Origin: a bacterium
GTDB lineage: Bacteria; Patescibacteriota; Minisyncoccia; UBA6257; GWB1-50-10
Direction: 5' to 3'
DNA: 64,000 nt
Assembly: GCA_021801565.1 (NCBI GenBank)
Contig: JAJYXV010000003.1
Coordinates: 293 to 64,292 of the forward strand
Part shown: positions 1 to 60,764 of the stretch, piece by piece
Layout: every line of letters begins with the position of its first letter
How positions within the stretch are numbered: position 1 is the stretch's first letter
Translations under genes and position numbers: made by a program
The notes under the pieces: generated by a model
What the model saw: only the letters and a program-made list of their open reading frames with translations
Databases searched by the model: none
Told to the model about the DNA's origin: nothing

Positions 1-2
1 TT

Positions 3-1964: not shown

Positions 1965-1975
1965 ACATATAGATT

Positions 1976-2614: not shown

Positions 2615-2628
2615 GCACCAAATCTTTA

Positions 2629-2724
2629 CCCCGTTAGATAGAGATAAAATTAAATGTTATCGTATATTACAAATAAGGAAATGTTAAAAAACAAAAAGGT
2701 CAATCTAGAATTATATCTAACGGG
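2629..2724 (+). repeat. Intergenic palindromic element, CCCGTTAG...CTAACGGG family (divergent copy)
   Basis: CCCCGTTAGATAGAG ... TTATATCTAACGGGG inverted termini flank an AT-rich core. Right end abuts the GTG at 2725. Confidence 0.45.
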
Positions 2725-3534: not shown

Positions 3535-3539
3535 TTTTT

Positions 3540-4550: not shown

Positions 4551-4571
4551 GCTCATCCTGATGTGTATAAT

Positions 4572-4597
4572 CGGAGGACAGTTTCCTCCGTTTTTTT
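4572..4597 (+). terminator. Rho-independent terminator after galT-like gene
   Basis: CGGAGGACAGTTTCCTCCG hairpin followed by TTTTTTT. Confidence 0.55.
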
Positions 4598-4598
4598 A

Positions 4599-4627
4599 TT
4601 GACGTGCCTAGGGAAAGAGGATAATAA
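4599..4627 (+). promoter_or_regulatory. Candidate sigma70-like promoter for the 1041-aa gene
   Basis: TTGACG (4599-4604), 16-17 nt spacer, ATAATAAT -10-like. About 40 nt upstream of ATG 4667. Confidence 0.35.
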
Positions 4628-4666
4628 TGAAGACAGCAATTTATTAACAAAACATAGAGGTAGGTA

Positions 4667-7792: not shown

Positions 7793-7794
7793 TC

Positions 7795-7830
7795 CAAAAT
7801 CCGCTTTTACAAAGGGCGGATTTTTATTTG
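7795..7830 (+). terminator. Rho-independent terminator after the 1041-aa gene
   Basis: AAATCCGC-loop-GCGGATTT followed by TTTATTT. Confidence 0.55.
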
Positions 7831-7857
7831 AACTGATATTGTGTAGAATGAGAGGAG

Positions 7858-8505
7858 ATGACAAAAGAAGAACTTATCGGGGAACTTGTGCATGATGGGT
7901 ATTTAAAAACACCGTCAATCATTGATGCATTCACCTATGTTGATCGTGTGGATTTCATCTCAGAAGATATGAAGCGATATACATACACAAATGAACCGCT
8001 TCCCATTGGGTTTGATCAGACAATTTCGCAACCGCTTACTGTAGCATTTATGCTTGAACTACTTTCTCCGAAAATCGGAGATGTAATTTTGGATATTGGT
8101 GTTGGTTCTGGGTGGCAGACCGCACTTCTCGCATTTATTATTTCGCGGGAATATGGAGAAGAAGAACACACTCCATCAGTCTTCGGTGTTGAGCGGATTC
8201 ATGAGTTGTTTGAATCAGCAAGACAAAATGTAGAGAAATATCATTACATAAGCAGAAATATTGTTTTACTTAAAGAAGGAGATGGAACGACGGGTTTTCT
8301 GGAACATGCCCCATATGACAAAATTGTCGCCGCTGCAGCAGCGCCTACAATTCCTCAAGCATGGAAGGATCAATTGAAAATAGGTGGCCGTATTGTAGCC
8401 CCGGTGGATGAATCAATTGTCGTTTTGGATAAAAAAGGAACAATGGATTTTGAAGAAAAACGATATTTCGGTTTTCATTTTGTTCCACTTATCTCGGTTA
8501 ATTAA
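7858..8505 (+). CDS. pcm: Protein-L-isoaspartate O-methyltransferase
   Basis: DQTISQPLTVAFMLELL and ILDIGVGSGWQTALLA SAM-binding motifs typical of PCMT. Confidence 0.8.
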   Translation: MTKEELIGELVHDGYLKTPSIIDAFTYVDRVDFISEDMKRYTYTNEPLPIGFDQTISQPLTVAFMLELLSPKIGDVILDIGVGSGWQTALLAFIISREYGEEEHTPSVFGVERIHELFESARQNVEKYHYISRNIVLLKEGDGTTGFLEHAPYDKIVAAAAAPTIPQAWKDQLKIGGRIVAPVDESIVVLDKKGTMDFEEKRYFGFHFVPLISVN

Positions 8506-8594
8506 TTTGTTTGCACTTATTAATGGAAATTTAATAAGCCATACCCTTATGGGAGACATTTTGGGGTTTTTGTTTTTTTATTTATACTGGATAT

Positions 8595-9752
8595 ATGGTC
8601 ACTTATATACGTAACACTTTGATAAAGAAAGGAACAACGTGCCTCTTGCGCATTGATTTAAATGTTGAATCATTGAAAGATTTATTCCGTGTGGAGTCGG
8701 TTGTTCCGACAATAAAGTTTCTGAGAAAGAAACATGTAAAAATAGTGATATTGAGTCATAGAGGAAGACCGCATCCCGAGGGACAGGGGATTCTGAATTT
8801 TAAATATAAAGTTTCTGACGAAGAGAAAAAGAGATATACATTGAGGCCATTTTCCAATATTGTTTCAAAAAAAATCGGGGAAAAAGTGAAGTTTATTGAC
8901 AGGTCGGATATTCAGGAGATAAGTGAGGAAATAAGAAATTCAAAAGATGAAGTTTTTATTCTTGAAAATATGCGCTTTTGGAGAGAAGAAGAAATGGATA
9001 GTATGGAATTTGGGAGACAACTTGCCTCACTGGGTGATTTTTATGTGAATGATGCGTTTGCGGTGAGTCACCGTGCGAACGCTTCGGTTTCCGCAATTAC
9101 TCGTTTTTTGCCTTCTTATGGCGGTTTGCTTCTCGAAAAAGAATTGGAGAATTTGGATACGGTAATACATAGTCCAAAACATCCATTTGTAATATTAATT
9201 GGGGGAATGAAAGTTTCAGACAAGGTTGGGGTGGTAAAATTCTTTTGGAAAAATGCAGATTCATTTCTTTTTGGCGGGGGAGCAGCAAACACATGTCTTG
9301 CGGCGCGAGGAGCATCAATTGGCACTTCTCTTGTGGATGAAAAAGCGTTTGAAGAAATACGGCCATACCTTGCGTCACTAAAAATACATCTTCCTGTTGA
9401 TACTGTAAATTCAGAAGGTAGAATCTTGGATATCGGGCAAAAAACTATTTCTGAATATACAAATATCATCGCAGATGCAAAAACTATTATATGGAGTGGA
9501 CCAATGGGATTCTTTGAAAAAAAGAAATTTTCTTCTGGAACGACGGAAATGTGGAAAACTATTATAAAATTAGCAAATAAAAACAAAAAAATTGTGATAA
9601 TAATTGGAGGAGGAGAGACCATAGCTTCGCTCAAATTATTAATTACCAACTACAAACTACCGAAAAACATATTTCTCTCGACGGGTGGCGGGGCAATGCT
9701 TGCGTATTTGTCCGGAGAAAAATTACCGGGAATTGAGGCGTTAAAAAAATAA
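8595..9752 (+). CDS. pgk: Phosphoglycerate kinase
   Basis: 385 aa. VNDAFAVSHRANASV signature. N-terminus LLRIDLNVE. Confidence 0.85.
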   Translation: MVTYIRNTLIKKGTTCLLRIDLNVESLKDLFRVESVVPTIKFLRKKHVKIVILSHRGRPHPEGQGILNFKYKVSDEEKKRYTLRPFSNIVSKKIGEKVKFIDRSDIQEISEEIRNSKDEVFILENMRFWREEEMDSMEFGRQLASLGDFYVNDAFAVSHRANASVSAITRFLPSYGGLLLEKELENLDTVIHSPKHPFVILIGGMKVSDKVGVVKFFWKNADSFLFGGGAANTCLAARGASIGTSLVDEKAFEEIRPYLASLKIHLPVDTVNSEGRILDIGQKTISEYTNIIADAKTIIWSGPMGFFEKKKFSSGTTEMWKTIIKLANKNKKIVIIIGGGETIASLKLLITNYKLPKNIFLSTGGGAMLAYLSGEKLPGIEALKK

Positions 9753-9760
9753 TTATAAAT

Positions 9761-9900
9761 CCCGTTAGAAACCCTGCTTACCGGCAGGCAGGCGCAATCG
9801 ATATATATAAAATAAAAAACAACTATGAGATATATAACAAAACAATTAGTCGCAATAAAGCCTATTATGGGTTGCTTGATCGCGATCTGTTTCTAATGGG
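9761..9900 (+). repeat. Intergenic palindromic element, CCCGTTAGAAAC...GATCGCGATCTGTTTCTAATGGG family
   Basis: Left end CCCGTTAGAAAC plus a CCTGCTTACCGGCAGGCAGG hairpin. AT-rich core with ATATATAAAATA. Right end abuts ATG 9901. Confidence 0.6.
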
Positions 9901-10764
9901 ATGAAAAAAATATTAGTGTTATATCACAAAAATTGTCCGGATGGGTTCGGAGGGGCATGGGCGGCATGGAAAAAATTTGGCAATAAAGCTGAATACGTTG
10001 CCGTTGATCCCGATACGCTTCCCGAAAAGTTTCCAAAGGGAAAAGAGATATATTCGGTTGATATAAGCTATCCGGTTTCAGTTCAAAAAAAATTACGGGA
10101 GAAAAACAAATCGCTTGTGATACTTGATCATCACGTGAGTAGAAAAAACGACACGGAGGCGTTTCCCGAAAATACATTTAATAATAATCATTCGGGTGCC
10201 GTGCTTGGATGGAGGTATTTTCATCCAAAAAAGAAGGTACCGAAATTTTTGGAATATATTGAGGATTATGATTTATGGAAATTTTCACTTCCAAAAACAA
10301 GAAGTATTATTCCATATCTCCATATGCAAAAAACTGATTTTATAACATGGGGGGAAATGGCGGATCAACTTGAAAAAAGAAATTGGGAAAAAATTTATTA
10401 TGAACGGGGGATGCTTTTACAAAAATATGAGGATAAAATAGTTGCCGACCTAATAAAAAAAGCAGACCTTGTTCTTTTTGAGAGAAAAAAGGTGTATGCA
10501 GTGAACTCTTCTCTAAGTAACATTGTGGATAAAATTGCTCACAATCTTTGTTTAAAAAAACAGCCGTTTTCAATTGTGTGGCATGAAAGAAGAGGAGAAT
10601 TAAAAGTATCTCTTCGTGCCGATGGGAAAATTGATGTATCGAAGATTGCACAAAAATACGGTGGAGGAGGGCATAAGAGCGCGTCGGGATTCGTAATAAA
10701 AAACGGGAAAAAACCATGGAAGATGGTAAAAACAAAAGACAAAAAACCGAAAACGAAAGATTAG
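9901..10764 (+). CDS. DHH/DHHA1 phosphoesterase (NrnA-like oligoribonuclease/pAp phosphatase)
   Basis: HKNCPDGFGGAWAAW, VILDHH and GGGHKSASGF motifs. Confidence 0.7.
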   Translation: MKKILVLYHKNCPDGFGGAWAAWKKFGNKAEYVAVDPDTLPEKFPKGKEIYSVDISYPVSVQKKLREKNKSLVILDHHVSRKNDTEAFPENTFNNNHSGAVLGWRYFHPKKKVPKFLEYIEDYDLWKFSLPKTRSIIPYLHMQKTDFITWGEMADQLEKRNWEKIYYERGMLLQKYEDKIVADLIKKADLVLFERKKVYAVNSSLSNIVDKIAHNLCLKKQPFSIVWHERRGELKVSLRADGKIDVSKIAQKYGGGGHKSASGFVIKNGKKPWKMVKTKDKKPKTKD

Positions 10765-10776
10765 AAATTTAAAACC

Positions 10777-11196
10777 ATGAAAAATAAAGAAAAAATCGTC
10801 ATTTATACGGACGGAGGGGCGCGAGGGAATCCTGGACCGGCAGCAATTGGGGTGGTATTTCCCAATTTTACAAAAGAATATGGGGAGCAAATTGGAATAA
10901 CGACAAATAATGTTGCTGAATACAAAGCGGTTATTTTTGGGTTAAAAAAAGCGAAGCAGTTACTCGGGGGTAATGAGTGTGAAAAAACGGAAATCGAAAT
11001 TCGGTCAGATAGCGAACTCGTAGTGAATCAAATAAGCGCAAAATATAAAATAAAGGATGAGGATTTGAAACCACTTTTTATCGATGTGTGGAATCTTATG
11101 CAAGATTTTAAAAAAGTGAGCTTTGTTCACGTTCCGAGAGAAAAAAATAAGGAAGCGGATACATTAGTGAATCAAGCACTTGACACACTCTTATAA
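10777..11196 (+). CDS. rnhA: Ribonuclease HI
   Basis: IYTDGGARGNPGPAAIGVV...EYKAVIFGL...IRSDSELVVNQ catalytic motifs. Confidence 0.8.
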   Translation: MKNKEKIVIYTDGGARGNPGPAAIGVVFPNFTKEYGEQIGITTNNVAEYKAVIFGLKKAKQLLGGNECEKTEIEIRSDSELVVNQISAKYKIKDEDLKPLFIDVWNLMQDFKKVSFVHVPREKNKEADTLVNQALDTLL

Positions 11197-11212
11197 GTCA
11201 ATTTTAATTATT

Positions 11213-11662
11213 TTGGTACATCAAACGATAGCTCCGATGTAACATCGGAGAGGAAAGTCCGGACACTCAACCCCGAATTTATTGAGGGGTACGTGTAGTG
11301 GGTAACACCCATCGAGGGAAACCTTAGAGGTGCGAGCAGTGACGCTCCAGCGCGCAAGAGTTGGAGAGACCCAATCCTAAGCTAGAAGGTCTAACTTCGC
11401 TATAGGGATAAAAAAGCGGAGGTGAAACGGCTAAATCCTTACATGAGTGCAAGATCGTGCTATCTTGTGCGGAGCACAAGTAACTGACAACAAACGACTA
11501 ACGACCAACAACGAAGATTTTTTCTATGTATTGTATGTTGTGGGTTGTAAGTTGTAAGTTACTCGCGCTCTGCGCGAGGTGGAGAATCGCTTGAGTCCGA
11601 GAGTAATCAAGGACCTAGATAAATTATCGTATAAACAGAATCCGGCTTATGATGTACCCAAT
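11213..11662 (+). ncRNA. rnpB: RNase P RNA (bacterial type A-like) with an ~85-nt inserted hairpin
   Basis: P4 strands GAGAGGAAAGTCCGGAC (11248-11264) and ACAGAATCCGGCTTAT (11634-11650). P1 GGTACATC / GATGTACC. P3 hairpin CTCCGATG-TAAC-CATCGGAG. Confidence 0.8.
11480..11563 (+). repeat. ACAAC-rich / GTTGT-rich hairpin element (copy A), inside rnpB
   Basis: GTAACTGACAACAAACGACTAACGACCAACAAC ... GTTGTGGGTTGTAAGTTGTAAGTTAC. The arms are complementary. Confidence 0.5.
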
Positions 11663-11880
11663 CCCGCCACTTTTTAAGCGGCGGGATTGACCCCGTGAGT
11701 AGAAACTCGATAAGCCACTTCGTGGCTGTATTTGTAGGCATTTCATTCTTTATGCATTGTATGCATTAACTAGATAAAATTCAGAAAATCCATCTTTTCA
11801 CAATCGAGTTTTCCTGCCTACCGCAGGCAGGCACTACGGGGTTGACTTTTCCCGCTGTTTTGTTAAAAATGTATCTGTTA

Positions 11881-12123
11881 ATGTCACACAATTCAAAATT
11901 CGTCCGGATTGATGGTATTGTCGTTGAGGCCTTACCCGGTCTCGTTTTTCGAGTAAAGATTCTGGTAAAAAATGAAGAAGGGAAAGAAGAAGAACGAGAA
12001 GTGCTTGGGCATCTCGCGGGGAAGTTAAAAATAAATTACATCCGCATTATTCCGGGAGATCGCGTATCGCTTGAGATGCCGAATGTAAATGATCGACGAG
12101 GAAGAATTGTGAGGAGATTATAA
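11881..12123 (+). CDS. infA: Translation initiation factor IF-1
   Basis: MSHNSKFVRIDGIVVEALPGLVFRVKI...NYIRIIPGDRVSLEM aligns to IF-1. The ORF track extends to a TTG at 11842, which is probably not the true start. Confidence 0.8.
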   Translation: MSHNSKFVRIDGIVVEALPGLVFRVKILVKNEEGKEEEREVLGHLAGKLKINYIRIIPGDRVSLEMPNVNDRRGRIVRRL

Positions 12124-12136
12124 TTGAGGTATGCAT

Positions 12137-12247
12137 CCCATTAGAAATCGCGATTGCTGATGGGATAAAAATAAAATGCAAAAAATACAAGTCGTAATTA
12201 AAGAAAGTATAAACCAGTTCGTTTAATCACGATCTGTTTCTCATAGA
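12137..12247 (+). repeat. Degenerate copy of the CCCGTTAGAAAC palindromic element
   Basis: CCCATTAGAAATCGCGAT ... ATCACGATCTGTTTCTCATAGA. Ends at rpmJ ATG 12248. Confidence 0.4.
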
Positions 12248-12364
12248 ATGAAAGTTCGTGCATCAGTAAAAAAGATTTGTCAGCATTGTAAAATCGTCCG
12301 AAGGAACGGCAAGTTGTATGTCATTTGTAAAAAAAATCCGAAACACAAACAAAGACAAGGATAA
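12248..12364 (+). CDS. rpmJ: 50S ribosomal protein L36
   Basis: 38-aa [41 protein letters not shown]. Below the ORF-track size cutoff. Confidence 0.8.
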
Positions 12365-12373
12365 ATAAACAAT

Positions 12374-12757
12374 ATGCGTGTAAGTGGAGTAAATATACCA
12401 GATAATAAAAAAATAGTTGTCTCATTGGCCTACCTTTATGGAATTGGTCCATTTTTATCGAAAAAAATTCTTGAGTCAGTAAAAATTGATCTAAATAAAC
12501 CGACAAAAAGTCTTACCACAGATGAAATTAGTAAGATTCAGGGAGCTATTGAAAAAAAATATAAAATCGAAGGAGAATTGCGCCAAGCAATTCGTCAGAA
12601 CGTGGGTCGATTACGAGATATAAAAGCATATCGCGGAATGCGACATGCGCGGCGTCTTCCGGTTCGCGGCCAGCGGACGAAAACAAATTCTCGGACTGTT
12701 CGGGGAAATGTAAGAAAAACCGCAGGAAGCGGAAAGAGGAAAGTTGAATTGAAGTAG
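12374..12757 (+). CDS. rpsM: 30S ribosomal protein S13
   Basis: MRVSGVNIPDNKKIVVSLAYLYGIG N-terminus. Confidence 0.9.
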   Translation: MRVSGVNIPDNKKIVVSLAYLYGIGPFLSKKILESVKIDLNKPTKSLTTDEISKIQGAIEKKYKIEGELRQAIRQNVGRLRDIKAYRGMRHARRLPVRGQRTKTNSRTVRGNVRKTAGSGKRKVELK

Positions 12758-12783
12758 TAATTACAATCAATACGGAATTTATT

Positions 12784-13236
12784 ATGGGAAAGAAAAAAGT
12801 TATACAAAAAACAAAAGAGCAGTTAATAGAAGAATCAGAAAAAGTTCAAGAAACGACCGAAAGAAAAGCGAGTCAGGGGGGGAAACATAAAATTGAACGA
12901 GGGAGGATTTACATTAATGCATCTTATAATAACACTATTATTACTGTGACGAATGAAGTTGGAAATGTCGTTGCATGGATGTCTTCTGGATCGATAGGAT
13001 TTTCTGGTCCTAAAAAAGCAACCCCATTTGCTGCATCAAAGGTTGCGGAAGCAATTTCAGCAAAGTTGGAGAAAACCGGTCCGTTTAATGTTGATGTATT
13101 CATATGTGGCGTTGGAAAAGGAAGAGATTCCGCGGTACGTACGTTTGCAGCGAAAAAGTTTAACATCCTTTCAATTAAGGATGTAACCCCAATTCCACAT
13201 AACGGTCCGCGTGCTCCGAAGGTAAGAAGAGTATAA
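12784..13236 (+). CDS. rpsK: 30S ribosomal protein S11
   Basis: GRIYINASYNNTIITVTNEVGNVVAWMSSGSIGFSGPKKATPFAA. Confidence 0.9.
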   Translation: MGKKKVIQKTKEQLIEESEKVQETTERKASQGGKHKIERGRIYINASYNNTIITVTNEVGNVVAWMSSGSIGFSGPKKATPFAASKVAEAISAKLEKTGPFNVDVFICGVGKGRDSAVRTFAAKKFNILSIKDVTPIPHNGPRAPKVRRV

Positions 13237-13251
13237 AATCTATTTATGAGT

Positions 13252-13382
13252 CCCGTTAATAATAGTTTTTATATCATTGACGGAATTATGAAATGACATT
13301 ATGTTAAATACACAAAAAACAAAAAAGACGAAATTTACAGAAAAAACGTACGGAAACGTAAACGTTTCCTATTATTAACGGG
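13252..13382 (+). repeat. Intergenic palindromic element, subfamily 2 (CCCGTTAATAATAG...CTATTATTAACGGG)
   Basis: Perfect 14-nt inverted termini. Internal hairpin GGAAACG-TAAA-CGTTTCC. Right end abuts ATG 13383. The preceding ATGAGT starts a tiny ORF. Confidence 0.55.
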
Positions 13383-13985
13383 ATGAAAAAAATTACGGAA
13401 AAAAAAGAACGATCACTCGGTGTAAGACTTTTCTTAAAAGCTGAACGGTGTAATTCTCCAAAATGTGTCATGGTGCGTCGTCCCACTCGTCCTGGTCAGC
13501 ATGGACAAAGACGGCACACGGTTTCTGAATATGGGAAGCAGCTACAAGAAAAACAAAAAATTCAGTTTTTATATGGGTTAACAAACCGCCAGATGACAAA
13601 ATTATTTCAGTCTTCAAATAGAAAAGAAAAGATTTTGCAGGTTCTTGAACATCGTCTTGATCGAGTCGTTTTTCTTCTTGGTTTCGCTGCATCTCCACGT
13701 ATTTCCCGTCAGCTTATTTCGCATGGCCATGTGTTGGTAAATGGAAGAAAAGTGACTATTCCATCGTTTCGTGTTAGGATAAAGGACATCATATCGATTC
13801 GTCCCGAATCTCGATCTCTTAAGCTCTTCGAAGAAATTCAGCTAAAGTTAAAGAAATATTCCTCTCCAGAATGGTTGAAGCTTTTTCCAGAGGAGTTAAA
13901 GGGGGAATGTGTAAAGAATTTTGATCCGGGGCAATCGCAGTTGCCATTTGATGTAAATATCGTCGGAGAATTTTATTCAAGATAA
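13383..13985 (+). CDS. rpsD: 30S ribosomal protein S4
   Basis: RQLISHGHVLVNGRKVTIPSFRV S4 domain. Confidence 0.9.
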   Translation: MKKITEKKERSLGVRLFLKAERCNSPKCVMVRRPTRPGQHGQRRHTVSEYGKQLQEKQKIQFLYGLTNRQMTKLFQSSNRKEKILQVLEHRLDRVVFLLGFAASPRISRQLISHGHVLVNGRKVTIPSFRVRIKDIISIRPESRSLKLFEEIQLKLKKYSSPEWLKLFPEELKGECVKNFDPGQSQLPFDVNIVGEFYSR

Positions 13986-51676: not shown

Positions 51677-53283
51677 AAAATTTTCGATTCTACGCACTCT
51701 TTTTTATTTTTGTCATATTATATAGCGCACTTGGCGCCAATCTTTACAAACTGCAGATCAGTAAGGGTGCAGAATTTTCGGCAAAAGCAGATGTAGTAAA
51801 AGAGATAGAAAAAGAACTTACTTTGCGTCGTGGTCAAATATTTTTTACAGATAAATTTGATACGAGTATTCCTATTGCTCTTAATAAAGATGAACCTATT
51901 ATTTTTATTGCACCAAATGAAATAAAAAGTCCGAAAAAGACAAGTGAGGAACTCAGCAAAATTTTCGGAATAGATGCTTTGAAGTTAGAAGAAGTGATTA
52001 ATTCAAATCCAGAGAGCTATTTTTTTCCGTTAGTTGATAGAGCGACTGAAGAGCAGGTAAACTTTGTAAGCGAAAAAAAACTTGAGGGTGTGCATGTAGA
52101 ACAAAAACAGTATCGTTCGTATCCATACGATAACCTTGCATCGCAAGTGATTGGATATGTTGGAAAGAATGATAAGAATCCAGAACCCACCGGGATTTAT
52201 GGTATTGAACGTTTTTATGATAAAGAACTTTCCGGTGGAGAAGATATTCATCTTACCATTGATAGAAATATACAATCGCATGCGGAACAGCTTCTCAATA
52301 GGTACATTGAAAAATTTAAGGCGACTGGGGGAACGATGATCGTGGAGAATCCAAAAACGGGAAAAATTATTGCACTTACTAGCAAACCAGATTTCAATCC
52401 AAATGAATATGGGAAATCAAATATAAAGAATTTTATAAATCCAGCGGTTCAGTATCAGTATGAACCTGGATCGGTATTTAAGCCGCTTACCATGTCGGCG
52501 GGGATTGATACGGGGGCGTTTACTCCTAATACAACGTTTGTCGATAAGGGATTTGTAACACTGAATGGGAGAACAATTCATAATGCGGAAAATAAAGTAT
52601 ATGGAAGGATCACTATGACGAGTGTGATTGAAAATTCTGTAAATACGGGAGCGGTATATGCAGAGCAACTTATTGGACATAAAAATTTTTATGAATATTT
52701 AAAGAAGTTCGGTTTTACAGAAAAAACAGGGATTAATTTACCAGAAGAAATTGCTGGAAATATACGGAATCTTGAACGAAAAGATGCGCGTGCCATTGAT
52801 TTCGCAACTGTTGCATTCGGACAGGGAGCTGCAGTAACACCGCTTCAGCTTGTGAATGCATTTTCGGTATTAGCAAATGGGGGATTGCTTATGAAGCCAT
52901 ATATTAATGAAGATGAAGCTCCGTATGTGGTACGGCGCGTGATAAGTGATGACACGGCGAAAAAAGTAACCTCAATGATTGAAACAACAGTTGAAAAAGC
53001 GAAAATAGCGGCAATTCCACAATATAGAGTTGCGGGAAAAACTGGGACAGCATACATTCCTGAAAATGGGAAGTATACAGAGGAAATGATTCATACATTT
53101 GTCGGATTTGCGCCAGTAAGCGATCCGCAGTTTGTCGTGTTAGTAAAACTTGATCGTCCACAGATCGGCGAGCTTGCGGGTCTCACTGTTGTTCCGGCTT
53201 TTCGTGAGTTATCCGAATTTATATTGAATTATTACAACATTCCTCCCGATAAGGTAAGCGCTGCACAGAATTCATCCCGTTAG
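51673..53283 (+). CDS. ftsI: Penicillin-binding protein (class B, FtsI-like transpeptidase)
   Basis: SVFKP (SxxK), SxN and KTGTA motifs. Its stop codon TAG lies inside the next palindromic element. Confidence 0.8.
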   Translation: MKNFRFYALFFIFVILYSALGANLYKLQISKGAEFSAKADVVKEIEKELTLRRGQIFFTDKFDTSIPIALNKDEPIIFIAPNEIKSPKKTSEELSKIFGIDALKLEEVINSNPESYFFPLVDRATEEQVNFVSEKKLEGVHVEQKQYRSYPYDNLASQVIGYVGKNDKNPEPTGIYGIERFYDKELSGGEDIHLTIDRNIQSHAEQLLNRYIEKFKATGGTMIVENPKTGKIIALTSKPDFNPNEYGKSNIKNFINPAVQYQYEPGSVFKPLTMSAGIDTGAFTPNTTFVDKGFVTLNGRTIHNAENKVYGRITMTSVIENSVNTGAVYAEQLIGHKNFYEYLKKFGFTEKTGINLPEEIAGNIRNLERKDARAIDFATVAFGQGAAVTPLQLVNAFSVLANGGLLMKPYINEDEAPYVVRRVISDDTAKKVTSMIETTVEKAKIAAIPQYRVAGKTGTAYIPENGKYTEEMIHTFVGFAPVSDPQFVVLVKLDRPQIGELAGLTVVPAFRELSEFILNYYNIPPDKVSAAQNSSR

Positions 53284-53413
53284 AAACCCTGCCCGCCGGT
53301 AGGCAGGTGCGATTGCGCCTAGAAGATATTAATTTAAAAAACATGCATACCATCGTCGAATATATAAAATATACACATATCGCACTCATCGATCGCGATC
53401 TGTTTCTAACTGG
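53276..53413 (+). repeat. Intergenic palindromic element, subfamily 1
   Basis: CCCGTTAGAAAC plus a CCTGCCCGCCGGTAGGCAGG hairpin ... GAATATATAAAATATAC ... GATCGCGATCTGTTTCTAACTGG. Abuts murF ATG 53414. Confidence 0.6.
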
Positions 53414-54718
53414 ATGAAAAACTTTTTTCTTTCGATTCTTAAAAAAAAGGTAAAATTTCTTGCAAAACTTACGCTGAAGCGCTACAACCCGGGTATTGTA
53501 GGTATTACGGGAAATATTGGAAAAACATCCACAAAAGAGGCAGTTGGAGTTGTACTTTCGCAAGCACGAAGAGTACGCGCATCATCAAAAAATTTTAATA
53601 ACGAATTGGGGTTACCACTTTCTATTCTTGGAGATTGGAATGTAACAGAAGGAATCTTTTTTTGGATGAAGGTATTTTTTAAATCGATATACCAGCTTGT
53701 CATTAAAAACAAAAAATACCCTGAAATAATTGTATTAGAATATGGAGTTGATCGGGCGGGGGACATGAAATATTTACTTGATATTGCACGTCCGCATATT
53801 GGTATTTTTACTGCAATGGGAGATGAAATGCCCGTACATATCGAATTCTTTAGCGGTATTGAAGCAATTGTGAAAGAGAAATCTAGACTTATACAACAAC
53901 TTCCTACAACGGGGTTTGCAATTTTGAATGCAGATGACATTCGTGTGATGGCAACGAGGGAATATACACATGCAAATGTAGTGACATTTGGATTTTCTGA
54001 AAAGGCAAATATGCGGATTAGTGGTTTTTCGAGCTATGTTTCTGAGGATGGTGGGGGGGTGACGTTTAAGCTTACGTATGGAGGAAGTGTGGTGCCGGTG
54101 CGGATTGATGGAGGACTAGGAAGGGCACCTGCATATGCCGCTGCGATAGGTGCTGTGGTTGGATTGGTGTTTGGAATGAATTTGGTAAAAATTGCAGAAG
54201 CGCTTTCTCATTATATTCCTCCAAGTGGACGAGAGCGTGTCATTCGTGGAGTGCGCCACTCAATTATTATTGATGATACATATAATGCGTCTCCAAGTGC
54301 TACAAAGGAGGCCCTCTCTACACTGAAGAGTTTAAGTGCAAAAAGAAAAATTGCTGTGTTGGGGGATATGCTTGAGTTAGGGAAATATACGTTTGACGAA
54401 CATCAAGCAATCGGACGCCTTATTCCTGAAAGTGCGGATTTATTATTTACTGTCGGTATCCGTGCAAAAATTATTGCCGAGACTGCTGAAAAAATTGGAT
54501 TTTCAAAGAAAAAAATATTTGTATTTACCAATATTCATGAAGCGGCAATGCAACTACAACAAAAAGTATTGCGCGGAGATCTTATTTTGATAAAGGGATC
54601 ACAAGGAGTCCGCATGGAACGGGTGGTAAAAGAAATTATGGCTGAACCGCTTCGAGCAAAAGAATTTTTAGTGAGACAAAGTAGATCATGGTTACGAAGG
54701 GCGGGATTGTATGATTAA
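53414..54718 (+). CDS. murF: UDP-N-acetylmuramoyl-tripeptide--D-alanyl-D-alanine ligase
   Basis: GITGNIGKTSTKE P-loop, GNFNNELGLP motif, Mur ligase middle and C-terminal domains. Confidence 0.7.
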   Translation: MKNFFLSILKKKVKFLAKLTLKRYNPGIVGITGNIGKTSTKEAVGVVLSQARRVRASSKNFNNELGLPLSILGDWNVTEGIFFWMKVFFKSIYQLVIKNKKYPEIIVLEYGVDRAGDMKYLLDIARPHIGIFTAMGDEMPVHIEFFSGIEAIVKEKSRLIQQLPTTGFAILNADDIRVMATREYTHANVVTFGFSEKANMRISGFSSYVSEDGGGVTFKLTYGGSVVPVRIDGGLGRAPAYAAAIGAVVGLVFGMNLVKIAEALSHYIPPSGRERVIRGVRHSIIIDDTYNASPSATKEALSTLKSLSAKRKIAVLGDMLELGKYTFDEHQAIGRLIPESADLLFTVGIRAKIIAETAEKIGFSKKKIFVFTNIHEAAMQLQQKVLRGDLILIKGSQGVRMERVVKEIMAEPLRAKEFLVRQSRSWLRRAGLYD

Positions 54719-54929
54719 AGCTCTACGAAATACGTTAGTTAGCGAAACAAATATATAAAAATCTCGTTATTCTTGCGCCCGGTATTTAATTTCGCTATAG
54801 TGATGGACGTTATTGGCCCTGTCGTTCCCGATTTCTCATCTGACATTTCAGATATGAGAAATCGAGGACTCTCGATTTATTTCCAATGGGATTGGAAATA
54901 AATCGGAGCTAACGACTCATTGACGGAGT

Positions 54930-55187
54930 ATGATATACACCCTTTATATCCTCAAATCGAACAAGAGTGGAAGATATTATGTAGGATCAACCAGTAATAT
55001 TATTCATCGTCTTGCAGAACATAATGGTGGTAGGGTAAAATCAACAAGAGCATATATACCATGGAGTGTGGCATATACGAAGACATTTCACTCACTTTCT
55101 GAGGCAAGAAGAAGAGAGTTGCAAGCGAAATCTTGGAAAAGTAGGGATGCTATTGAAAAATTATTGGCCTCATCGTCTAACGGCTAG
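54930..55187 (+). CDS. Small GIY-YIG (URI) domain protein (COG2827/YhbQ-like)
   Basis: YTLYILKSNKSGRYYVGSTSNIIHRLAEHN. Its last ~22 nt overlap the 5' end of tRNA-Glu. Confidence 0.6.
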   Translation: MIYTLYILKSNKSGRYYVGSTSNIIHRLAEHNGGRVKSTRAYIPWSVAYTKTFHSLSEARRRELQAKSWKSRDAIEKLLASSSNG

Positions 55188-55237
55188 GACAATGCCCTCT
55201 CACGGCATAAATAGGAGTTCGATTCTCCTTGGGGCTG
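55166..55237 (+). tRNA. tRNA-Glu (anticodon CUC)
   Basis: Manual cloverleaf. Acceptor GGCCTCA / TGGGGCT (two G-U pairs), D-stem GTCT / GGAC, anticodon stem ATGCC / GGCAT, loop CTCTCAC, T-loop TTCGATT. Discriminator G. Confidence 0.7.
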
Positions 55238-55314
55238 CACTTAGAAAATCATATCGAGATTTTGAGGTATAGATTTTCAAGTGCTCCGATCGTAGTATTG
55301 GAGCAAAAAATATT

Positions 55315-55920
55315 ATGAATATTCGCGCTATTGGTTTTGATTATGGTGGTGTCATCGAAGGGGATTCTGGAAGTGTATTTGAAAAGGGAGTGGGAGACCT
55401 TCTTGGTATAGATAAAGAAACTTTTAAAAAAGTATATTTTGAAAACAATTTTCTCGTAAATACTGGGCAGTTAAGTTGGGAGGAATTTTGGAAAAAAGTT
55501 TTGATTGAACTTGGAAAAACGGAAAAAACTTCCGAATTTTTTGAATTTCTCAAAAATCAGCCCAAACCAAGAATTAATGAGAATATAGTGCAACTTATCA
55601 GTAAATTAAAATCCAGGGGATATAAAGTTGGTATTTTGAGTAACAATTCAATCGAAAAAGCACAAAAAATTCGTTCTTCGGAAATTGCAAAATATTTTGA
55701 CACGATGGTTTTTTCCGAAGAGGTGGGGTATATGAAACCACAGCCCGGGATATTTGAAATATTCATAAAAAATCTCAATATAAAAATAGAAGAACTTGCC
55801 TTTGTCGATGATACTGAACAAAGCTTAAAGACAGCCAAGGAAGTTGGATTTCATCCTATCCTTTTCACCGATTATGAAAATCTAGTAAAGGATCTTCAAT
55901 TTATTGGAATTGAGTTATAA
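55315..55920 (+). CDS. HAD-superfamily hydrolase (subfamily IA-like)
   Basis: GFDYGGVI motif I, SNNS motif II region, K...VDD motif III/IV. Confidence 0.65.
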   Translation: MNIRAIGFDYGGVIEGDSGSVFEKGVGDLLGIDKETFKKVYFENNFLVNTGQLSWEEFWKKVLIELGKTEKTSEFFEFLKNQPKPRINENIVQLISKLKSRGYKVGILSNNSIEKAQKIRSSEIAKYFDTMVFSEEVGYMKPQPGIFEIFIKNLNIKIEELAFVDDTEQSLKTAKEVGFHPILFTDYENLVKDLQFIGIEL

Positions 55921-55929
55921 TTTTTATAT

Positions 55930-56826
55930 ATGAAAATGTTTGAGTCGGATGTGAATAAAAAAGAAGCGTTGGATAAACGTTTTGAAAATCCAGAAGTTTT
56001 GGAACTTGATGAATTTCCAAAGGGGAGAGTGGAAATAATTGACTTAGATCCGCGGGAGAAAAAAACAGAGATACCTCTCATGATAGTTCCTGGGTGGGCC
56101 GCAACTGCGGAGGTGTGTAAAGAAAACAGTCAGATTTTTTCAGAAGAACTAGGGCGTAGAACAATAACTCTTAATGCGCCACATGGAATCGAAACAGATC
56201 CACAAGAGGATATTCCACTTGCGGAATTACGAAAGGCGGCCGCGATAACAAGGGTTATGGAAGAGAAGAATATTGAAAAGGTTGATATACTCACACATTC
56301 TGAAGGAGCGCTTTTTACGACTATTGCGGCAATGCAAAATCCGGAAAAATTCAGAAGTATTGTATATTTTTCTCCTGCCGGGTTAGTTGGTGAAGATACT
56401 TTTTGGAAGCTTATATCCAGGTTTGGTTCTGATTTATTGCAACAGTGGAAAGATCGTAAAAAAAGTCCCGAACGTGAATCAAAAATAAATGCCGCACTTA
56501 TTGAAGCACTTAAAACATTTAAAAATCCTAAAATGTCGATTGATGAAATAATGGCTATTGCGGATTTGCAAATACAGGAAAATTTGCGGGAATTGAAACA
56601 ATTTGGTATAAAAATTGTTATTATGCACCCCGTGGGAGATAAGGCTTTTCCGATGGAAAAAATGCAAAAAATGGTAGATGGAGAAATGGTGAATGGATTT
56701 ATTTCTGTGGGAGATGCAAGAAAGACTGGGGAAGTTGCCGAAACCCATAATGCATGGTATTTGACTCCACGGAAATATACTCTTGCAATTGATTCGATAT
56801 TGAAGAATTTTGATGAAAAGAAGTAA
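55930..56826 (+). CDS. Alpha/beta-hydrolase fold protein
   Basis: THSEGA nucleophile-elbow-like motif and alternating beta/alpha pattern. Substrate unknown. Confidence 0.5.
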   Translation: MKMFESDVNKKEALDKRFENPEVLELDEFPKGRVEIIDLDPREKKTEIPLMIVPGWAATAEVCKENSQIFSEELGRRTITLNAPHGIETDPQEDIPLAELRKAAAITRVMEEKNIEKVDILTHSEGALFTTIAAMQNPEKFRSIVYFSPAGLVGEDTFWKLISRFGSDLLQQWKDRKKSPERESKINAALIEALKTFKNPKMSIDEIMAIADLQIQENLRELKQFGIKIVIMHPVGDKAFPMEKMQKMVDGEMVNGFISVGDARKTGEVAETHNAWYLTPRKYTLAIDSILKNFDEKK

Positions 56827-56916
56827 TAAACTAACCCAATATGAATATAGAAAAAAGAAATTGTCAGAATTGTCCGCCCGAGGCGGATCAGCCTTGGGCT
56901 GATAAATATTAAACTT

Positions 56917-58617
56917 ATGAAAGAAGAACGAACATGTCAAAACTGTAAAAACCGATTTGTTATCGAGTCGGAAGACTTTGATTTTTATAAAAAAATTAGT
57001 GTTCCACCCCCAACATGGTGTCCGGAATGCAGACTTATTCGGCGATTTTCGTTTATGAATTTGTGGAGTCTGTATAAACGGAAATGCTCAAAGTGTGGTA
57101 AATCAATGGTAAGTATCCATGCAGAAGATACCGAATTTCCAGTCTACTGTCAGCCATGTTGGTGGGCCGACGATTGGGATGGAACCGAATATGCTATGGA
57201 ATATAACCAAAATCGGCCATTTCTTGAGCAGGTACGGGAGTTGGTTAATAAAACTCCATACATGGGTCTTGAGAGTGCATATCTCACCAATACAAACAGT
57301 GATTATACAAACGGAACGGCATATTCAAAAAATTGTTATATGACGTTTTGGGCAGATTATTGTGAAAATGTTTATTATTCGATATTTCTTTTTAATCTTC
57401 GTGATTCGTTAAATTGTTATAGAATGAAAGATAGTGAGCTTTGTTATGAAGATGTTGGATGTTATAAGTGCTACACGACGTATTATTCTGAAGAATGTGA
57501 TTCATGTACCGATGTATGGTTTTCACGCTCTTGTACTGGATGCACAAATTGTTTTGGGTGTATTAATTTGCGGAATAAAAGCTATTGTATTTTTAATGAG
57601 CAATATACAAAAGAAAAATATTTTGAAAAATTGAAAGAATTTAATCTTTCATCATATTTTGCATTGGAGAATATAAGAAGGAAGGTTTATGAATTTTGGT
57701 TGAAATATCCTCGCAGAGCATATATAGGGAATAGTTTGAATGTAAATGTGACGGGTGACTATGTATATGAGTCGAAGAATTCACGCGACACCTACATGGC
57801 AAGTGGTGTTGAGGATTCGCGGTTTACTCAATTTATCTCAGTTGCAAAAGCGCATGATTCTTATGATTATACCGGATGGGGAAATGGCGCAGAACGTATT
57901 TATGAGTCATGTGTTGTTGGAGAGGGGGCAAATAATATAAAGTTCTCAAATGAGTGCTGGCCCGATGTATTGAATATTGAATATTCAATTTATGCAATTA
58001 CGTGCAAAAATGTTATGGGTTGTGTGAATCTAAAGCGCAAGGAATATTGTATTTTAAATAAACAATATACAAAAGAAGAATATGAAAAATTATCAACGCA
58101 TATCCGCGAAGAGATGATTCGAAATCCCTATGTTGATTCTTTGGGTCGCACATGGAAATATGGTGAATTTTTACCGTATGAACTTTCTCCTTTCACATAT
58201 AATCAAACAATAGCGTTGGCTTTTTTCCCAAAAAATAAGGAAGAAATTTTAAAAGAAGGAATACGGTGGCATGAGGCAGAAGAAAACGAATATATAATTA
58301 CCATACAAGCGAAAGATCTTCCGGATTCCATTCAAAATACAGATGAATCTATTTTGAAGGAAGTTATTGCGTGTGAAACTTGTGGAAAGGCGTATAAAAT
58401 TCTTCAGGGAGAATTAGACCTCCTAAGGAGATTTTCATTGCCGATATATCACCATTGTTCAACGTGTCGAAGAAATGCATTATTTTTTAGAACAAATTTA
58501 CCGCGTTTATACAATAGAAATTGTATGAAGTGTAATAAACAAATAAATACTTCATATGCACCCGACAGACCAGAAATTGTGTATTGCGAACAATGCTATC
58601 AAGCGGAAATGGTGTAG
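56917..58617 (+). CDS. Large cysteine-rich protein with terminal zinc-ribbon domains and internal Cys repeats (uncharacterised)
   Basis: N-terminal CQNC-x21-CPECRLIRR is mirrored at the C-terminus as CETC...CSTCRRN. Internal repeats GC[IV]NL[RK]xKxYCI[FL]N[EK]QYTKE[KE]Y occur twice. 566 aa. Confidence 0.5.
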   Translation: MKEERTCQNCKNRFVIESEDFDFYKKISVPPPTWCPECRLIRRFSFMNLWSLYKRKCSKCGKSMVSIHAEDTEFPVYCQPCWWADDWDGTEYAMEYNQNRPFLEQVRELVNKTPYMGLESAYLTNTNSDYTNGTAYSKNCYMTFWADYCENVYYSIFLFNLRDSLNCYRMKDSELCYEDVGCYKCYTTYYSEECDSCTDVWFSRSCTGCTNCFGCINLRNKSYCIFNEQYTKEKYFEKLKEFNLSSYFALENIRRKVYEFWLKYPRRAYIGNSLNVNVTGDYVYESKNSRDTYMASGVEDSRFTQFISVAKAHDSYDYTGWGNGAERIYESCVVGEGANNIKFSNECWPDVLNIEYSIYAITCKNVMGCVNLKRKEYCILNKQYTKEEYEKLSTHIREEMIRNPYVDSLGRTWKYGEFLPYELSPFTYNQTIALAFFPKNKEEILKEGIRWHEAEENEYIITIQAKDLPDSIQNTDESILKEVIACETCGKAYKILQGELDLLRRFSLPIYHHCSTCRRNALFFRTNLPRLYNRNCMKCNKQINTSYAPDRPEIVYCEQCYQAEMV

Positions 58618-58652
58618 TCTATAAAGTTAAAAGTCCATAAAATTTTTAAAAT

Positions 58653-58901
58653 ATGAAAGAAGAACGAACGTGTCAAAACTGTGAATCTGTTTTCATTATT
58701 GAAGATGAGGATTTTCAGTTTTACAAAAAAATTGATGTACCCCCACCGACGTTTTGTTGGAAGTGTAGATTACAAAGAAGGATGATGTGGAGAAATACGA
58801 GGGTGGTATATAAACGCGCCGATCTTGGAAATCTTACTCTTTTTTCAGCATTTTCACCGGATTCTCCATTAAAGATTGAAATATATTATAATATTGGTTA
58901 G
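58653..58901 (+). CDS. Truncated paralog of the N-terminal zinc-ribbon domain of the preceding gene (possible gene fragment)
   Basis: The first 30 nt are identical to the 56917 start in 29 of 30 positions. Protein MKEERTCQNCESVFIIEDEDFQFYKKIDVPPPTFCWKCRLQRR, after which homology is lost. Confidence 0.4.
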   Translation: MKEERTCQNCESVFIIEDEDFQFYKKIDVPPPTFCWKCRLQRRMMWRNTRVVYKRADLGNLTLFSAFSPDSPLKIEIYYNIG

Positions 58902-58906
58902 GTTGC

Positions 58907-59683
58907 ATGTTTATGGAAAGCGAATCAATAAAATTTCTCAAAAATATTGAAGATAACACAGGTTTTCTACCTGATGTTTTTATTAAGAAGAAAATAATTG
59001 GTAGAGGAGCTTTTGGGACTGTTTATGAAGCAGAAATTGAAAAAAATTCTCATAAAAAATCGTTCGCGATTAAGGATTATAGATTAGGGTCTGGGATAAC
59101 AGAACGAATGCCAGAAGAACAAATTAAGAGGTTTGTATTAAGAGCATTTAGTGCTTACGAGGAAGCAAAAAAGGTAGGACTCAAGGTTTTTCCCACTGTA
59201 AGAATTAGTCAAGATCACTACCAATTATTGATGTCTTTGAAAGAAAATGATAAATATTCTTTGTTAAGTAAGGGGAATGCAGATGATTTATTTTCTGACA
59301 GAGATAATAAAAGAATGGAGCGGGTAGAGAATATTACAAACATTCAAGAATTAGTTGCTGATATTGAAAGCAATTTACTGAAAGCATCAGAACACAAAAT
59401 TTATCTTCCTTGGGATTCATATTTTTTTGTTGTAGAAAAATCTAATCCTACACATCTTGATTTTGTGATAGGGGATTATGATTATGTTGCAGATAAAGAC
59501 TATAGAGAAAGAGAATATAAACAAAAAGAATTTTTTGATATGAATATAAATGAAGCAAAAAGCTCACTAAAAAACCTATTCTATTCTTATCTCAAAAAAG
59601 AAAAAGAAGAAGAATTTGATATCTCAGTAGCAGGATTATTAGATAAATTTCGGGTAGAAAATATTGATAAATTTAACCAATAG
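58907..59683 (+). CDS. Protein-kinase-like protein (Gly-rich loop + AIK lysine present; HRD/DFG not evident), possible pseudokinase
   Basis: IGRGAFGTVYEA...SFAIKDY matches kinase subdomains I-II. No HRDLKxxN catalytic loop was found. Acidic, Lys/Glu-rich C-terminus. Confidence 0.45.
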   Translation: MFMESESIKFLKNIEDNTGFLPDVFIKKKIIGRGAFGTVYEAEIEKNSHKKSFAIKDYRLGSGITERMPEEQIKRFVLRAFSAYEEAKKVGLKVFPTVRISQDHYQLLMSLKENDKYSLLSKGNADDLFSDRDNKRMERVENITNIQELVADIESNLLKASEHKIYLPWDSYFFVVEKSNPTHLDFVIGDYDYVADKDYREREYKQKEFFDMNINEAKSSLKNLFYSYLKKEKEEEFDISVAGLLDKFRVENIDKFNQ

Positions 59684-59750
59684 GCAATTATTATTAAACT
59701 AACATTTTCTCAAATCTACCTTCCTGTATAAGTAGCGTAGGAATATAAAG

Positions 59751-60764
59751 ATGAAAACGAAAGTCATAAAAATAAGTTCAAAAAAACCGGAAGTAAAAAT
59801 AATCCAAAACGCTGCAGTAATTATAAAGAACGGCGGACTTGTGGCATTCCCGACAGAGACGGTATATGGACTTGGTGCAAATGCATTTAATGCAAGCGCA
59901 GTAAGAAAAATTTTTAAAGCGAAAAGACGTCCAGCGGACAATCCATTTATTGTGCATGTGAGTGATGAGAAAATGTTGAAGTTAGTAGCGAAAGAAATTC
60001 CAGAAAAAGCAATTCCGCTTATGAAGAAATTTTGGCCAGGGCCCCTTACGATTGTATTCAGAAAGAAAAAACGAATTCCAAACGTAGTAACCGCCGGAGG
60101 GGACACGGTTGCAGTGAGAATTCCTTCACATCCAGTGGCGCTCGCGCTTATAAGGGAAGCGGGGATTCCAATAGCCGCACCATCGGCAAATACCTCAACG
60201 CGTCCGAGTCCAACGGAAGCAAAGCATGTGTATGAGGATTTTAACGGAAAAATTCCACTTATCCTTAATGGAGGAAAAACAAATATTGGTGTTGAATCGA
60301 CTGTGCTTGATTTGACGATAAATGTCCCTACATTATTGCGGAAAGGAAAAGTAACAAAAAAAGATATTGAGAAAGTTATCGGTGTTATAAAGGTTCATGT
60401 GAAAAAAACAAAGGGGGTGGTGAAGTCTCCCGGTCAAAAATATAAACACTATGCTCCAAAAGCATCTCTCGTCCTTGTTTATGGTGGGATAAAAGCGGTA
60501 AAGAAAATTATTTCAAAATATAGTAAGAAAAAGATTTTTGTCATTACTTTTTCGGAACATATGGATAAATACCCAAAGACATGTGAAATATATGTTCTTG
60601 GAAAAAAACAAAATACAATTGCGGCAGCAAAAAACTTTTTTTCGCTACTTCGAAAATGTGACAAAAATGGGGCTGATGTGATTATAGTCGAAGCGGTTGT
60701 TGAAAAGGGAGTTGGGGAGGCACTTATGGATAGAATTTCCCGTGCGGCCTCAATGATTGTATAA
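59751..60764 (+). CDS. tsaC: L-threonylcarbamoyladenylate synthase (Sua5/YrdC/TsaC family with Sua5 C-terminal domain)
   Basis: GGLVAFPTETVYGLGANAFN and RPAPSANTSTRPSPT motifs. 337 aa. Confidence 0.8.
   Translation: MKTKVIKISSKKPEVKIIQNAAVIIKNGGLVAFPTETVYGLGANAFNASAVRKIFKAKRRPADNPFIVHVSDEKMLKLVAKEIPEKAIPLMKKFWPGPLTIVFRKKKRIPNVVTAGGDTVAVRIPSHPVALALIREAGIPIAAPSANTSTRPSPTEAKHVYEDFNGKIPLILNGGKTNIGVESTVLDLTINVPTLLRKGKVTKKDIEKVIGVIKVHVKKTKGVVKSPGQKYKHYAPKASLVLVYGGIKAVKKIISKYSKKKIFVITFSEHMDKYPKTCEIYVLGKKQNTIAAAKNFFSLLRKCDKNGADVIIVEAVVEKGVGEALMDRISRAASMIV

Follow-up and report, generated by a model that had tools for sequence, protein, structure and literature searches.

Do three adjacent genes transcribed in the same direction form a functional unit? 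The question is raised by a short interval within a 64,000-nucleotide (nt) stretch of DNA from a bacterium of the Patescibacteriota (GenBank assembly GCA_021801565.1, contig JAJYXV010000003.1, positions 293 to 64,292 of the forward strand), which we call the window. Here, a long cysteine-rich protein, a short open reading frame (ORF) with a nearly identical beginning and a kinase-like protein are encoded next to one another. An earlier note on this DNA, made from the sequence alone, suggested that they constitute a zinc-ribbon plus pseudokinase module involved in signaling or defense. Our analysis leads to a different answer. The interval probably comprises three functionally unlinked units: a conserved, Patescibacteria-wide Cys-rich ortholog, the decayed stump of a paralog, and a sporadic minimal kinase-fold protein. 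All three ORFs were confirmed where the note had placed them:

56917-58617, + strand: Cys-rich protein of 566 amino acids (aa), "A"
58653-58901, + strand: ORF of 82 aa
58907-59683, + strand: kinase-fold protein of 258 aa

The comparison of genomic contexts bears directly on the question. We examined 10 kinase-like loci outside the window lineage, which represent 8 distinct places (L005-L007 share the protein P0124). Within 5 kb of the kinase-like gene, a member of the zinc-ribbon family to which the 566-aa protein belongs was found at 0/10 of these loci, and so was Sua5 or TsaD (0/10). An all-against-all comparison of the neighbors at these loci identified no shared neighbor besides the kinase-like gene itself. 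Conversely, no kinase-like gene was present within 6-8 kb at any of the 7 other zinc-ribbon loci. The proposed module is contradicted by these results: the zinc-ribbon family is ubiquitous and shows no association with the kinase-like one. The adjacency of the kinase-like gene to zinc-ribbon genes and to Sua5 would then be lineage-specific and incidental. The arrangement itself is real. Three other assemblies (GCA_027423585.1, SRR13178629 and SRR22746132) are 100% identical to the window over 56801-59800, and because the arrangement is the same in independent assemblies, the assembly duplication against which the note had cautioned is excluded.

A database search with the 566-aa protein retrieved over 6,590 relatives. 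Of these, the top 120 align over the full length with 54-87% identity (plus one identical copy), are nearly all 560-585 aa long, with a few shorter, and are all unnamed or "hypothetical"; the named organisms among them are Patescibacteria (Jorgensen-, Lipton-, Brenner- and Nomurabacteria, Paceibacterota). The family, with a typical length of ~567 aa, is present in thousands of assemblies, and the window protein scores 1006 bits against the family profile. In this uncharacterized Cys-rich family, which spans the Patescibacteria, the 566-aa gene represents the conserved ortholog. A literature search yielded no description of this family or of the kinase-like family. Copy number differs between loci:

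L019 and L020: one family copy each
L015: two family copies
L026, array at 6115-11508: three family copies
L018, array at 6001-13713: at least four family copies
L027, array at 1-9704: at least six family copies
L021, 28-12245 and 14212-15731: eight family copies

Scored against the ortholog profile, a single copy per locus reaches ~1000 bits (908-1010); the others have 340-700. The paralogs have the same length as the ortholog and are 30-48% identical to it and among themselves, suggesting that the family grows by forming tandem arrays whose members diverge. Between pairs of genomes, the ortholog is 55-65% identical; two further proteins could be compared for the same pairs, and of these Sua5 is 30% and the TraG-like protein ~35% identical. 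Its own paralogs aside, the ortholog has no constant neighbors. Across 7 independent contexts, mur/mre/pbp genes occur nearby in four, a gene for N6-threonylcarbamoyladenosine (t6A) synthesis (Sua5 or TsaD) in three, ribosomal protein genes in three, and CutA1 plus a TraG-like ATPase in two to three; the role of the family would be a housekeeping one. Among the individual arrays, those of L018 and L021 adjoin CutA1 and a TraG/VirD4-like ATPase, and that of L026 directly follows MreB-MreC-PBP2. The window encodes a TraG/VirD4-like coupling-protein homolog at positions 3-1961, 55 kb from the 566-aa gene and 34-36% identical to the proteins that adjoin the L018 and L021 arrays.

The 566-aa protein itself has a nearly symmetrical organization:

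56935-57159, + strand: N-terminal zinc-ribbon pair, C7/C10/C35/C38-R, then C57/C60/C78/C81
57268-57654, + strand: core repeat 1 (residues ~118-246), with a Cys ladder, a closing motif and a helix
57724-58116, + strand: core repeat 2 (residues ~270-400), a second copy of repeat 1 within the protein, in which most ladder cysteines are replaced
58372-58596, + strand: C-terminal zinc-ribbon pair, C486/C489/C514/C517-R, then C536/C539/C557/C560

Each end carries the same double module, CxxC-x24-CxxCR and, 18 residues on, CxxC-x17-CxxC. The note had described a module repeated at both ends, and the repetition is borne out (residues 1-85 of a paralog match residues 480-564 of the 566-aa protein with E 1.4e-9 in BLASTP), but the first spacer is 24 residues rather than ~21. 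The 82-aa ORF likewise matches residues 480-556 (E 1.8e-5). All 16 ribbon cysteines, along with many aromatic residues, are invariant among 63 orthologs. In a set of 15 orthologs and paralogs, the first N-terminal ribbon is retained in all, the second in 8-10, and the C-terminal ribbon cysteines in 14-15. In both pairs, it is the first ribbon that is basic (isoelectric points 8.5 and 9.4).

The second ribbon of each pair resembles the zf_Tbcl_2 (TIGR04272, PF23477) and zf_Tbcl (PF13451) domains, with the exact CxxC-x17-CxxC spacing at C57-C81 and C536-C560. In the 566-aa protein, PF23477 aligns to the C-terminal pair with 19.8 bits (cut-off 27) and TIGR04272 scores 14.6 bits (cut-off 36); among the 63 orthologs, PF23477 matches 57 at E <= 0.01 (best E 2e-9), and PF13451 matches 17 weakly, on the N-terminal pair. 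Representatives of the CxxC-x17-CxxC domain, small proteins of Methanosarcina, bind zinc as measured by inductively coupled plasma mass spectrometry (PMC12704099). However, the zf_Tbcl models describe treble-clef domains or small proteins of ~37-48 aa, whereas in the 566-aa protein four ribbons flank a core of ~400 aa. This core matched no Pfam or NCBIfam family and no solved structure, and a sequence search of the PDB with the family profile retrieved LIM-type Cys-rich proteins only.

The core is internally duplicated, residues ~118-246 against ~270-400 (E 6e-10 in BLASTP, via residues 118-246 of a paralog), so that the duplicated Cys motif pointed out in the note is part of a larger repeat. 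In core repeat 1, a ladder with nine-residue spacing (C140, 149, 167, 176, 185 and 194, and C197, 206, 215 and 224) includes the cluster C206-x2-C209-x2-C212-x2-C215 and ends with the motif GCxNLxxKxYCIxNxQYTKEEY plus a helix; C197, 206, 209, 212 and 215 are retained in 14/15 paralogs. Core repeat 2 retains C369 (15/15) and C378 (13/15). A structure search with the core returned weak beta-solenoid resemblances only, with near-noise scores. Among the beta-solenoids with Cys ladders or hexapeptides that we compared (Tenebrio antifreeze protein, left-handed beta-helix acyltransferases and gamma-carbonic anhydrases, curli, bactofilin), the enzymes differ from the 566-aa protein, which lacks acyltransferase and carbonic-anhydrase residues.

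The protein has no hydrophobic segment. Because it is cytoplasmic, its cysteines are likelier to be metal ligands than to form disulfides. Judging from the sequence, a basic treble-clef or zinc-ribbon pair at each end would give a pseudo-symmetric build around the duplicated core, and the core, with a cysteine every nine residues, could be a metal-stabilized solenoid. Each of the four terminal ribbons would hold one Zn and serve as a binding module for a macromolecular partner, either nucleic acid or protein, and the rigid core might act as a scaffold able to pair with the protein's own paralogs.

The kinase-like protein belongs to a very different family. A word-based search found three relatives, and an exhaustive profile search 447 clusters, 247 of these at E <= 1e-10. 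The members are mostly stand-alone proteins of ~220-260 aa, typically ~240 aa, a few reaching 340 aa. Homologs begin with ME.., and other assemblies call a protein of 256 aa from the second ATG at 58913, so the true start is likely located there, 6 nt later than in the 258-aa ORF. The structural model displays a bilobal kinase fold, with comparison scores of 12.4 for Rio1, 12.2 for RIOK3, 11.9 for Rio2, 11.4 and 10.5 for Bud32, 10.4 for HopBF1 and 10-11.7 for many eukaryotic-type kinases. Thus, the protein has a genuine protein-kinase-like fold and the motif noticed earlier is not a chance match. Two regions stand out:

59000-59074, + strand: ATP-binding N-lobe motifs, G32-x-G34-x-x-G37 (GRGAFG) and the beta3 lysine K56, counterpart of K72 in PKA
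59414-59482, + strand: candidate active-site acidic cluster, D170, then D185-F-V-I-G189-D190-Y-D192

Conservation was counted over 113 diverse members of the family. In the glycine loop and lysine, which the note had correctly read, K56 is present in 113/113, G34 in 112/113 and G37 in 95/113; in the C-lobe, D170 is present in 110/113, D185 in 102/113, G189 in 102/113, D190 in 113/113, D192 in 104/113 and N213 in 107/113. The note was also right that no literal HRD or DFG motif exists in the 258-aa protein. By sequence, only the N-lobe is recognizable. Weak Pkinase and PK_Tyr_Ser-Thr matches are confined to the stretch from the Gly-loop to the lysine, a PDB sequence search with the family profile retrieved kinase N-lobes only, an hhalign comparison with PKA (using an approximate query sequence for PKA) aligned the Gly-loop alone, and a C-lobe-only profile found no kinase in the PDB, only noise. 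For all three proteins of the interval, the matches in Pfam, NCBIfam, PADLOC and PHROGs stayed below threshold and were limited to zinc fingers and kinase N-lobes.

The conserved acidic residues can nevertheless be placed on the kinase fold. D190, after G189, directly follows the strand 180-188, which is the DFG position (D184 of PKA); HMMER pairs iGDlD with IGDFG of PKR, although this stretch stays below threshold (-1.9 bits). In the model, D170 lies in a three-residue turn right before the beta strand 172-177 and is the sole conserved residue available for the catalytic Asp (D166) or Asn (N171). For the alphaC Glu (E91 of PKA), helix 70-89 offers no conserved acidic residue; A77, A80, N83, Y84, A87 and K88 are conserved there. 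The protein would bind ATP via the Gly-loop and K56 and Mg via D190, and D170, together with D185, D192 or N213, would support the transfer of a phosphoryl group or the hydrolysis of ATP, much as in atypical kinases of the RIO and Bud32 type. On this pattern of conservation, we lean toward an active atypical kinase or ATPase.

The nearest known systems are the RIO kinases (Rio1, Rio2, RIOK3) and Bud32/PRPK, minimal atypical protein-kinase-like ATPases. Unlike these, the 258-aa protein lacks the HxD...N catalytic loop (HxDLxxxN), the IDxxQ/IDFG motifs and a conserved alphaC Glu, and has the additional conserved residues D185, D192 and N213; no ribosome-biogenesis or KEOPS partner is found in the neighborhoods of the family, which is bacterial (Patescibacteria) and sporadic. 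No RIO1- or Bud32-type model of Pfam or NCBIfam matches at E <= 1, and Rio1 matches over profile positions 26-86 only (E 0.39). A further likeness is to the alpha-kinase ChaK and to PIPKIIbeta, active kinases without a catalytic-loop helix, in which an almost linear connection leads from the catalytic Asp to strand 7; PIPKIIbeta also has no K72-E91 ion pair (Scheeff and Bourne 2005, PMC1261164). In the 258-aa protein, the arrangement D170-x-[strand 172-177] and the lack of an alphaC Glu are reminiscent of these enzymes and, by analogy, the family may resemble such loop-less atypical kinases.

The strongest competing view of this protein, and one that we consider appreciably less probable, is that it is a true pseudokinase, as the note had it, which binds a nucleotide, lacks a catalytic base and works as a switch or scaffold. 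The absence of an HRD motif and of a conserved alphaC Glu, and the failure of the C-lobe profile to match any kinase by sequence, are in line with this view, as is a possible register, I165-x-L167-x-x-D170, that puts D170 at N171 and a variable residue at D166 (PKA numbering as in PMC1261164). Against it, D170, D185, D190, D192 and N213 are retained in 90-100% of the 113 members, which is unusual for a dead enzyme, and ChaK and PIPKIIbeta demonstrate that kinases can be active without a catalytic-loop helix.

The 82-aa ORF is related to its neighbor, the 566-aa gene, but not derived from it recently. Its identity to the start of the 566-aa gene is 29/30 nt and then falls to 66/90, 86/129 and 123/246, in agreement with the divergence reported in the note. 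Against the zinc-ribbon family profile, the ORF scores 76.6 bits over positions 2-77. The first ribbon is intact (C7, C10, C35 and C38), all cysteines of the second are lost, and the end is unrelated sequence. A comparison of the window at 53000-60000 with positions 2000-7000 of L002, a locus of a related lineage (GCA_021823645.1), clarifies its origin. The flanks there are 75-88% identical to those of the window, the kinase-like protein is 93% identical, and a full-length family member, frameshifted into ORFs of 464 aa and 196 aa, lies directly upstream of the kinase-like gene. The 82-aa ORF can be aligned, in frame, with residues 1-73 of this paralog, with 80% nt identity (129 nt) and 73% aa identity (first 55 residues), vs 67% and 65%, respectively, for the adjacent 566-aa gene; beyond residues 1-73, the region of the ORF shows no further homology to the L002 paralog in any frame. 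The L002 paralog is only 43% identical to the 566-aa protein of the window, so the two genes are old paralogs.

The 82-aa ORF would therefore be the stump left by a ~1.5-kb deletion in a second array member, and it is most likely a pseudogene fragment. Of the two origins offered in the note, truncation of a related gene stands, and recent tandem duplication does not. The start MKEERxCQNC is common to the 566-aa gene, the 82-aa ORF and the L002 paralog, and the near-identical first 30 nt represent a shared, conserved 5' end, possibly with a contribution of gene conversion, rather than a recent duplication. The ORF occurs in this species only, as a single exact cluster found on 8 contigs; two further matches are cut fragments of longer genes. 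That it encodes a functional mini zinc-ribbon protein standing on its own is an improbable alternative. The reading frame is unbroken and has both a start codon and the four cysteines of the first ribbon, its first 55 residues have kept their similarity to the full-length paralog while the remainder decayed, and stand-alone small proteins with CxxC zinc fingers exist and bind zinc (PMC12704099); yet it is confined to this species, has no second-ribbon cysteine, ends in unrelated sequence and, the other assemblies being 100% identical here, offers no diverged copy in which selection could be seen.

Gene decay sets the L002 locus apart from the window in other respects as well. Between MurF and Sua5, the HAD gene is cut to its first ~60 codons, the alpha/beta hydrolase gene and the ortholog of the 566-aa gene are absent, and the paralog is similar to the window 566-aa gene both at its 5' end and in the region upstream of it. 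These differences fit a deletion in which the two paralogs recombined through their similar 5' ends.

How did the kinase-like gene come to lie between the paralog array and Sua5? Insertion as cargo of a mobile element or prophage seems to us rather unlikely. The contexts of the gene outside the window lineage are as follows:

L001: terminase genes and a ParB-methyltransferase gene
L005-L007: a ~290-aa unknown; a serine recombinase beside the L007 copy (P0124)
L008: a split MurA-like gene
L010: adenylosuccinate lyase and IMPDH
L011: DsbA and sigma-70
L012: unknowns
L013: HlyD and RNase HII
L014: S9 and GrpE

The family is patchy and its context different each time, one member (P0002) directly follows genes for the small and large terminase subunits and a ParB-methyltransferase, and another (P0124) adjoins a serine recombinase, all of which would suit mobile cargo. 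However, half of the 10 contexts (L008, L010, L011, L013 and L014) are plain housekeeping ones without mobility genes, no flanking repeats or integrase are found at the gene in the window, and the family has no match among IMG/VR or GenBank phage sequences. Neither family is matched in GenBank phages or PLSDB, and in IMG/VR the zinc-ribbon family has one marginal, partial match at a contig end. Two of the loci merit description in their own right. At L001 (3077-5621), where P0002 is 36% identical to the window protein and the methyltransferase is of the ParB-N6 type, the region is probably a Patescibacterium prophage or another element of phage origin. At L008 (3429-4985), an XRE-type helix-turn-helix is fused to an N-terminal fragment of MurA (EPSP-synthase fold), and the rest of MurA is a separate next ORF, immediately upstream of the kinase-like homolog.

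A second explanation of the neighborhood, that the kinase-like protein is a Bud32-like ATPase working with the adjacent Sua5/TsaC in a KEOPS-like t6A modification system, is attractive in view of the Sua5 adjacency in the window but very unlikely. That adjacency is confined to the window lineage, RIO and ordinary eukaryotic-type kinases score at least as high as Bud32 in the structure comparison, no Bud32 or RIO model is matched by sequence, and t6A synthesis is universal, whereas the kinase-like family, with its 447 clusters, is sporadic. We rejected this reading on finding no Sua5 or TsaD within 5 kb of the gene at the 10 other kinase-like loci.

The least probable proposal, to which we give hardly any weight, is that the zinc-ribbon and kinase-like proteins make up a single signaling or anti-phage defense module on a tRNA-adjacent accessory island: three adjacent, co-oriented genes with short spacers, a MurF-Sua5 interval that varies between relatives, a GIY-YIG gene beside tRNA-Glu, and weak N-lobe matches of the kinase-like protein to the defense kinases mad6 and PD-T4-6 favor it, but the two families do not co-occur at either set of loci, the zinc-ribbon proteins have no PADLOC match, the mad6 and PD-T4-6 matches in PADLOC are limited to the Gly-loop/Lys region (residues ~14-103, best E 2.6e-6), although the models are much longer, and come without partner genes, the 566-aa gene is core and highly conserved, and phage genomes carry neither family, save for the marginal zinc-ribbon match on a viral contig.

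Beyond the three genes, the tRNA-Glu, GIY-YIG gene and hydrolases mentioned in the note are in place. Upstream lie the genes for MurF, the GIY-YIG protein and two hydrolases, one of the HAD and one of the alpha/beta type, and downstream those for Sua5/TsaC and GpsA:

55166-55238: tRNA-Glu
56870-56905, + strand: GC-rich hairpin between the hydrolase stop codon and the 566-aa start, 12 nt upstream of the 566-aa gene

The description of this context as an accessory island holds insofar as the MurF-Sua5 stretch differs between close relatives, but not for the 566-aa gene, which is the most conserved copy of its family and occurs in housekeeping contexts. The hairpin (-23.9 kcal/mol; z -4.6 vs shuffles) is surrounded by AT-rich sequence, is single copy within the window, and lies in a region that is 72% conserved upstream of the L002 paralog; it may serve the upstream gene as a terminator or form a structured leader. 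Over 54500-60000, the tRNA was the sole match in Rfam and promoter/terminator scans. The GIY-YIG ORF (54930-55187) overlaps the 5' end of tRNA-Glu by 22 nt. L002 has no GIY-YIG gene and carries instead a 35-nt partial copy of the 5' part of the tRNA, 32 nt upstream of the intact tRNA-Glu (L002 3621-3760). This arrangement looks like the trace of a small GIY-YIG element with the tRNA gene as its target.

Returning to the interpretation of the interval as three unlinked units, with a metal-binding solenoid and an active kinase-like enzyme among their products, several points weigh against it. The context samples are small (10 kinase-like and 7 zinc-ribbon loci), and the order paralog, kinase-like gene, Sua5 is kept in the one related lineage available, as would be expected from linkage but equally from shared ancestry. 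In the model of the 566-aa protein, the solenoid part has a predicted local distance difference test (pLDDT) score of 47-70 and weak structural matches, and metal content, oligomerization and ligand alike are inferred. As for the kinase-like family, it has no conserved alphaC glutamate, and D170 may occupy the position of the metal-binding Asn rather than that of the catalytic Asp, leaving no catalytic base.

A more elaborate picture is correspondingly speculative, and we think it unlikely to be right as a whole. The ~567-aa family would be a Patescibacteria-specific cytoplasmic metalloprotein in which the ribbons clamp a Cys-ladder solenoid, with a possible Fe-S or multi-Zn cluster at C197/206/209/212/215; it would form a hetero-oligomeric scaffold with its paralogs and have an essential housekeeping role, for example, in the cell-envelope and cell-shape machinery or in RNA modification, and the kinase-fold family would be a new, loop-less catalytic branch. 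The envelope/shape and RNA-modification roles are suggested because genes of these classes are the most frequent neighbors of the ~567-aa family.

For the biology of these bacteria, the consequences are of several kinds. The lead toward a defense or signaling module can be dropped. The ~567-aa family is conserved above Sua5 and the TraG-like protein, reaches up to eight tandem copies and has no solved structural relative; because it is conserved and widespread and lacks such a relative, it is a good target for structural and metal-content work. The kinase-fold family adds a minimal branch, unrecognizable by sequence, to the kinase superfamily, in which K56, D170, D190, D192 and N213 are directly testable by mutagenesis. 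In Patescibacteria, with their reduced genomes, most of the conserved unknown proteins are still untouched.

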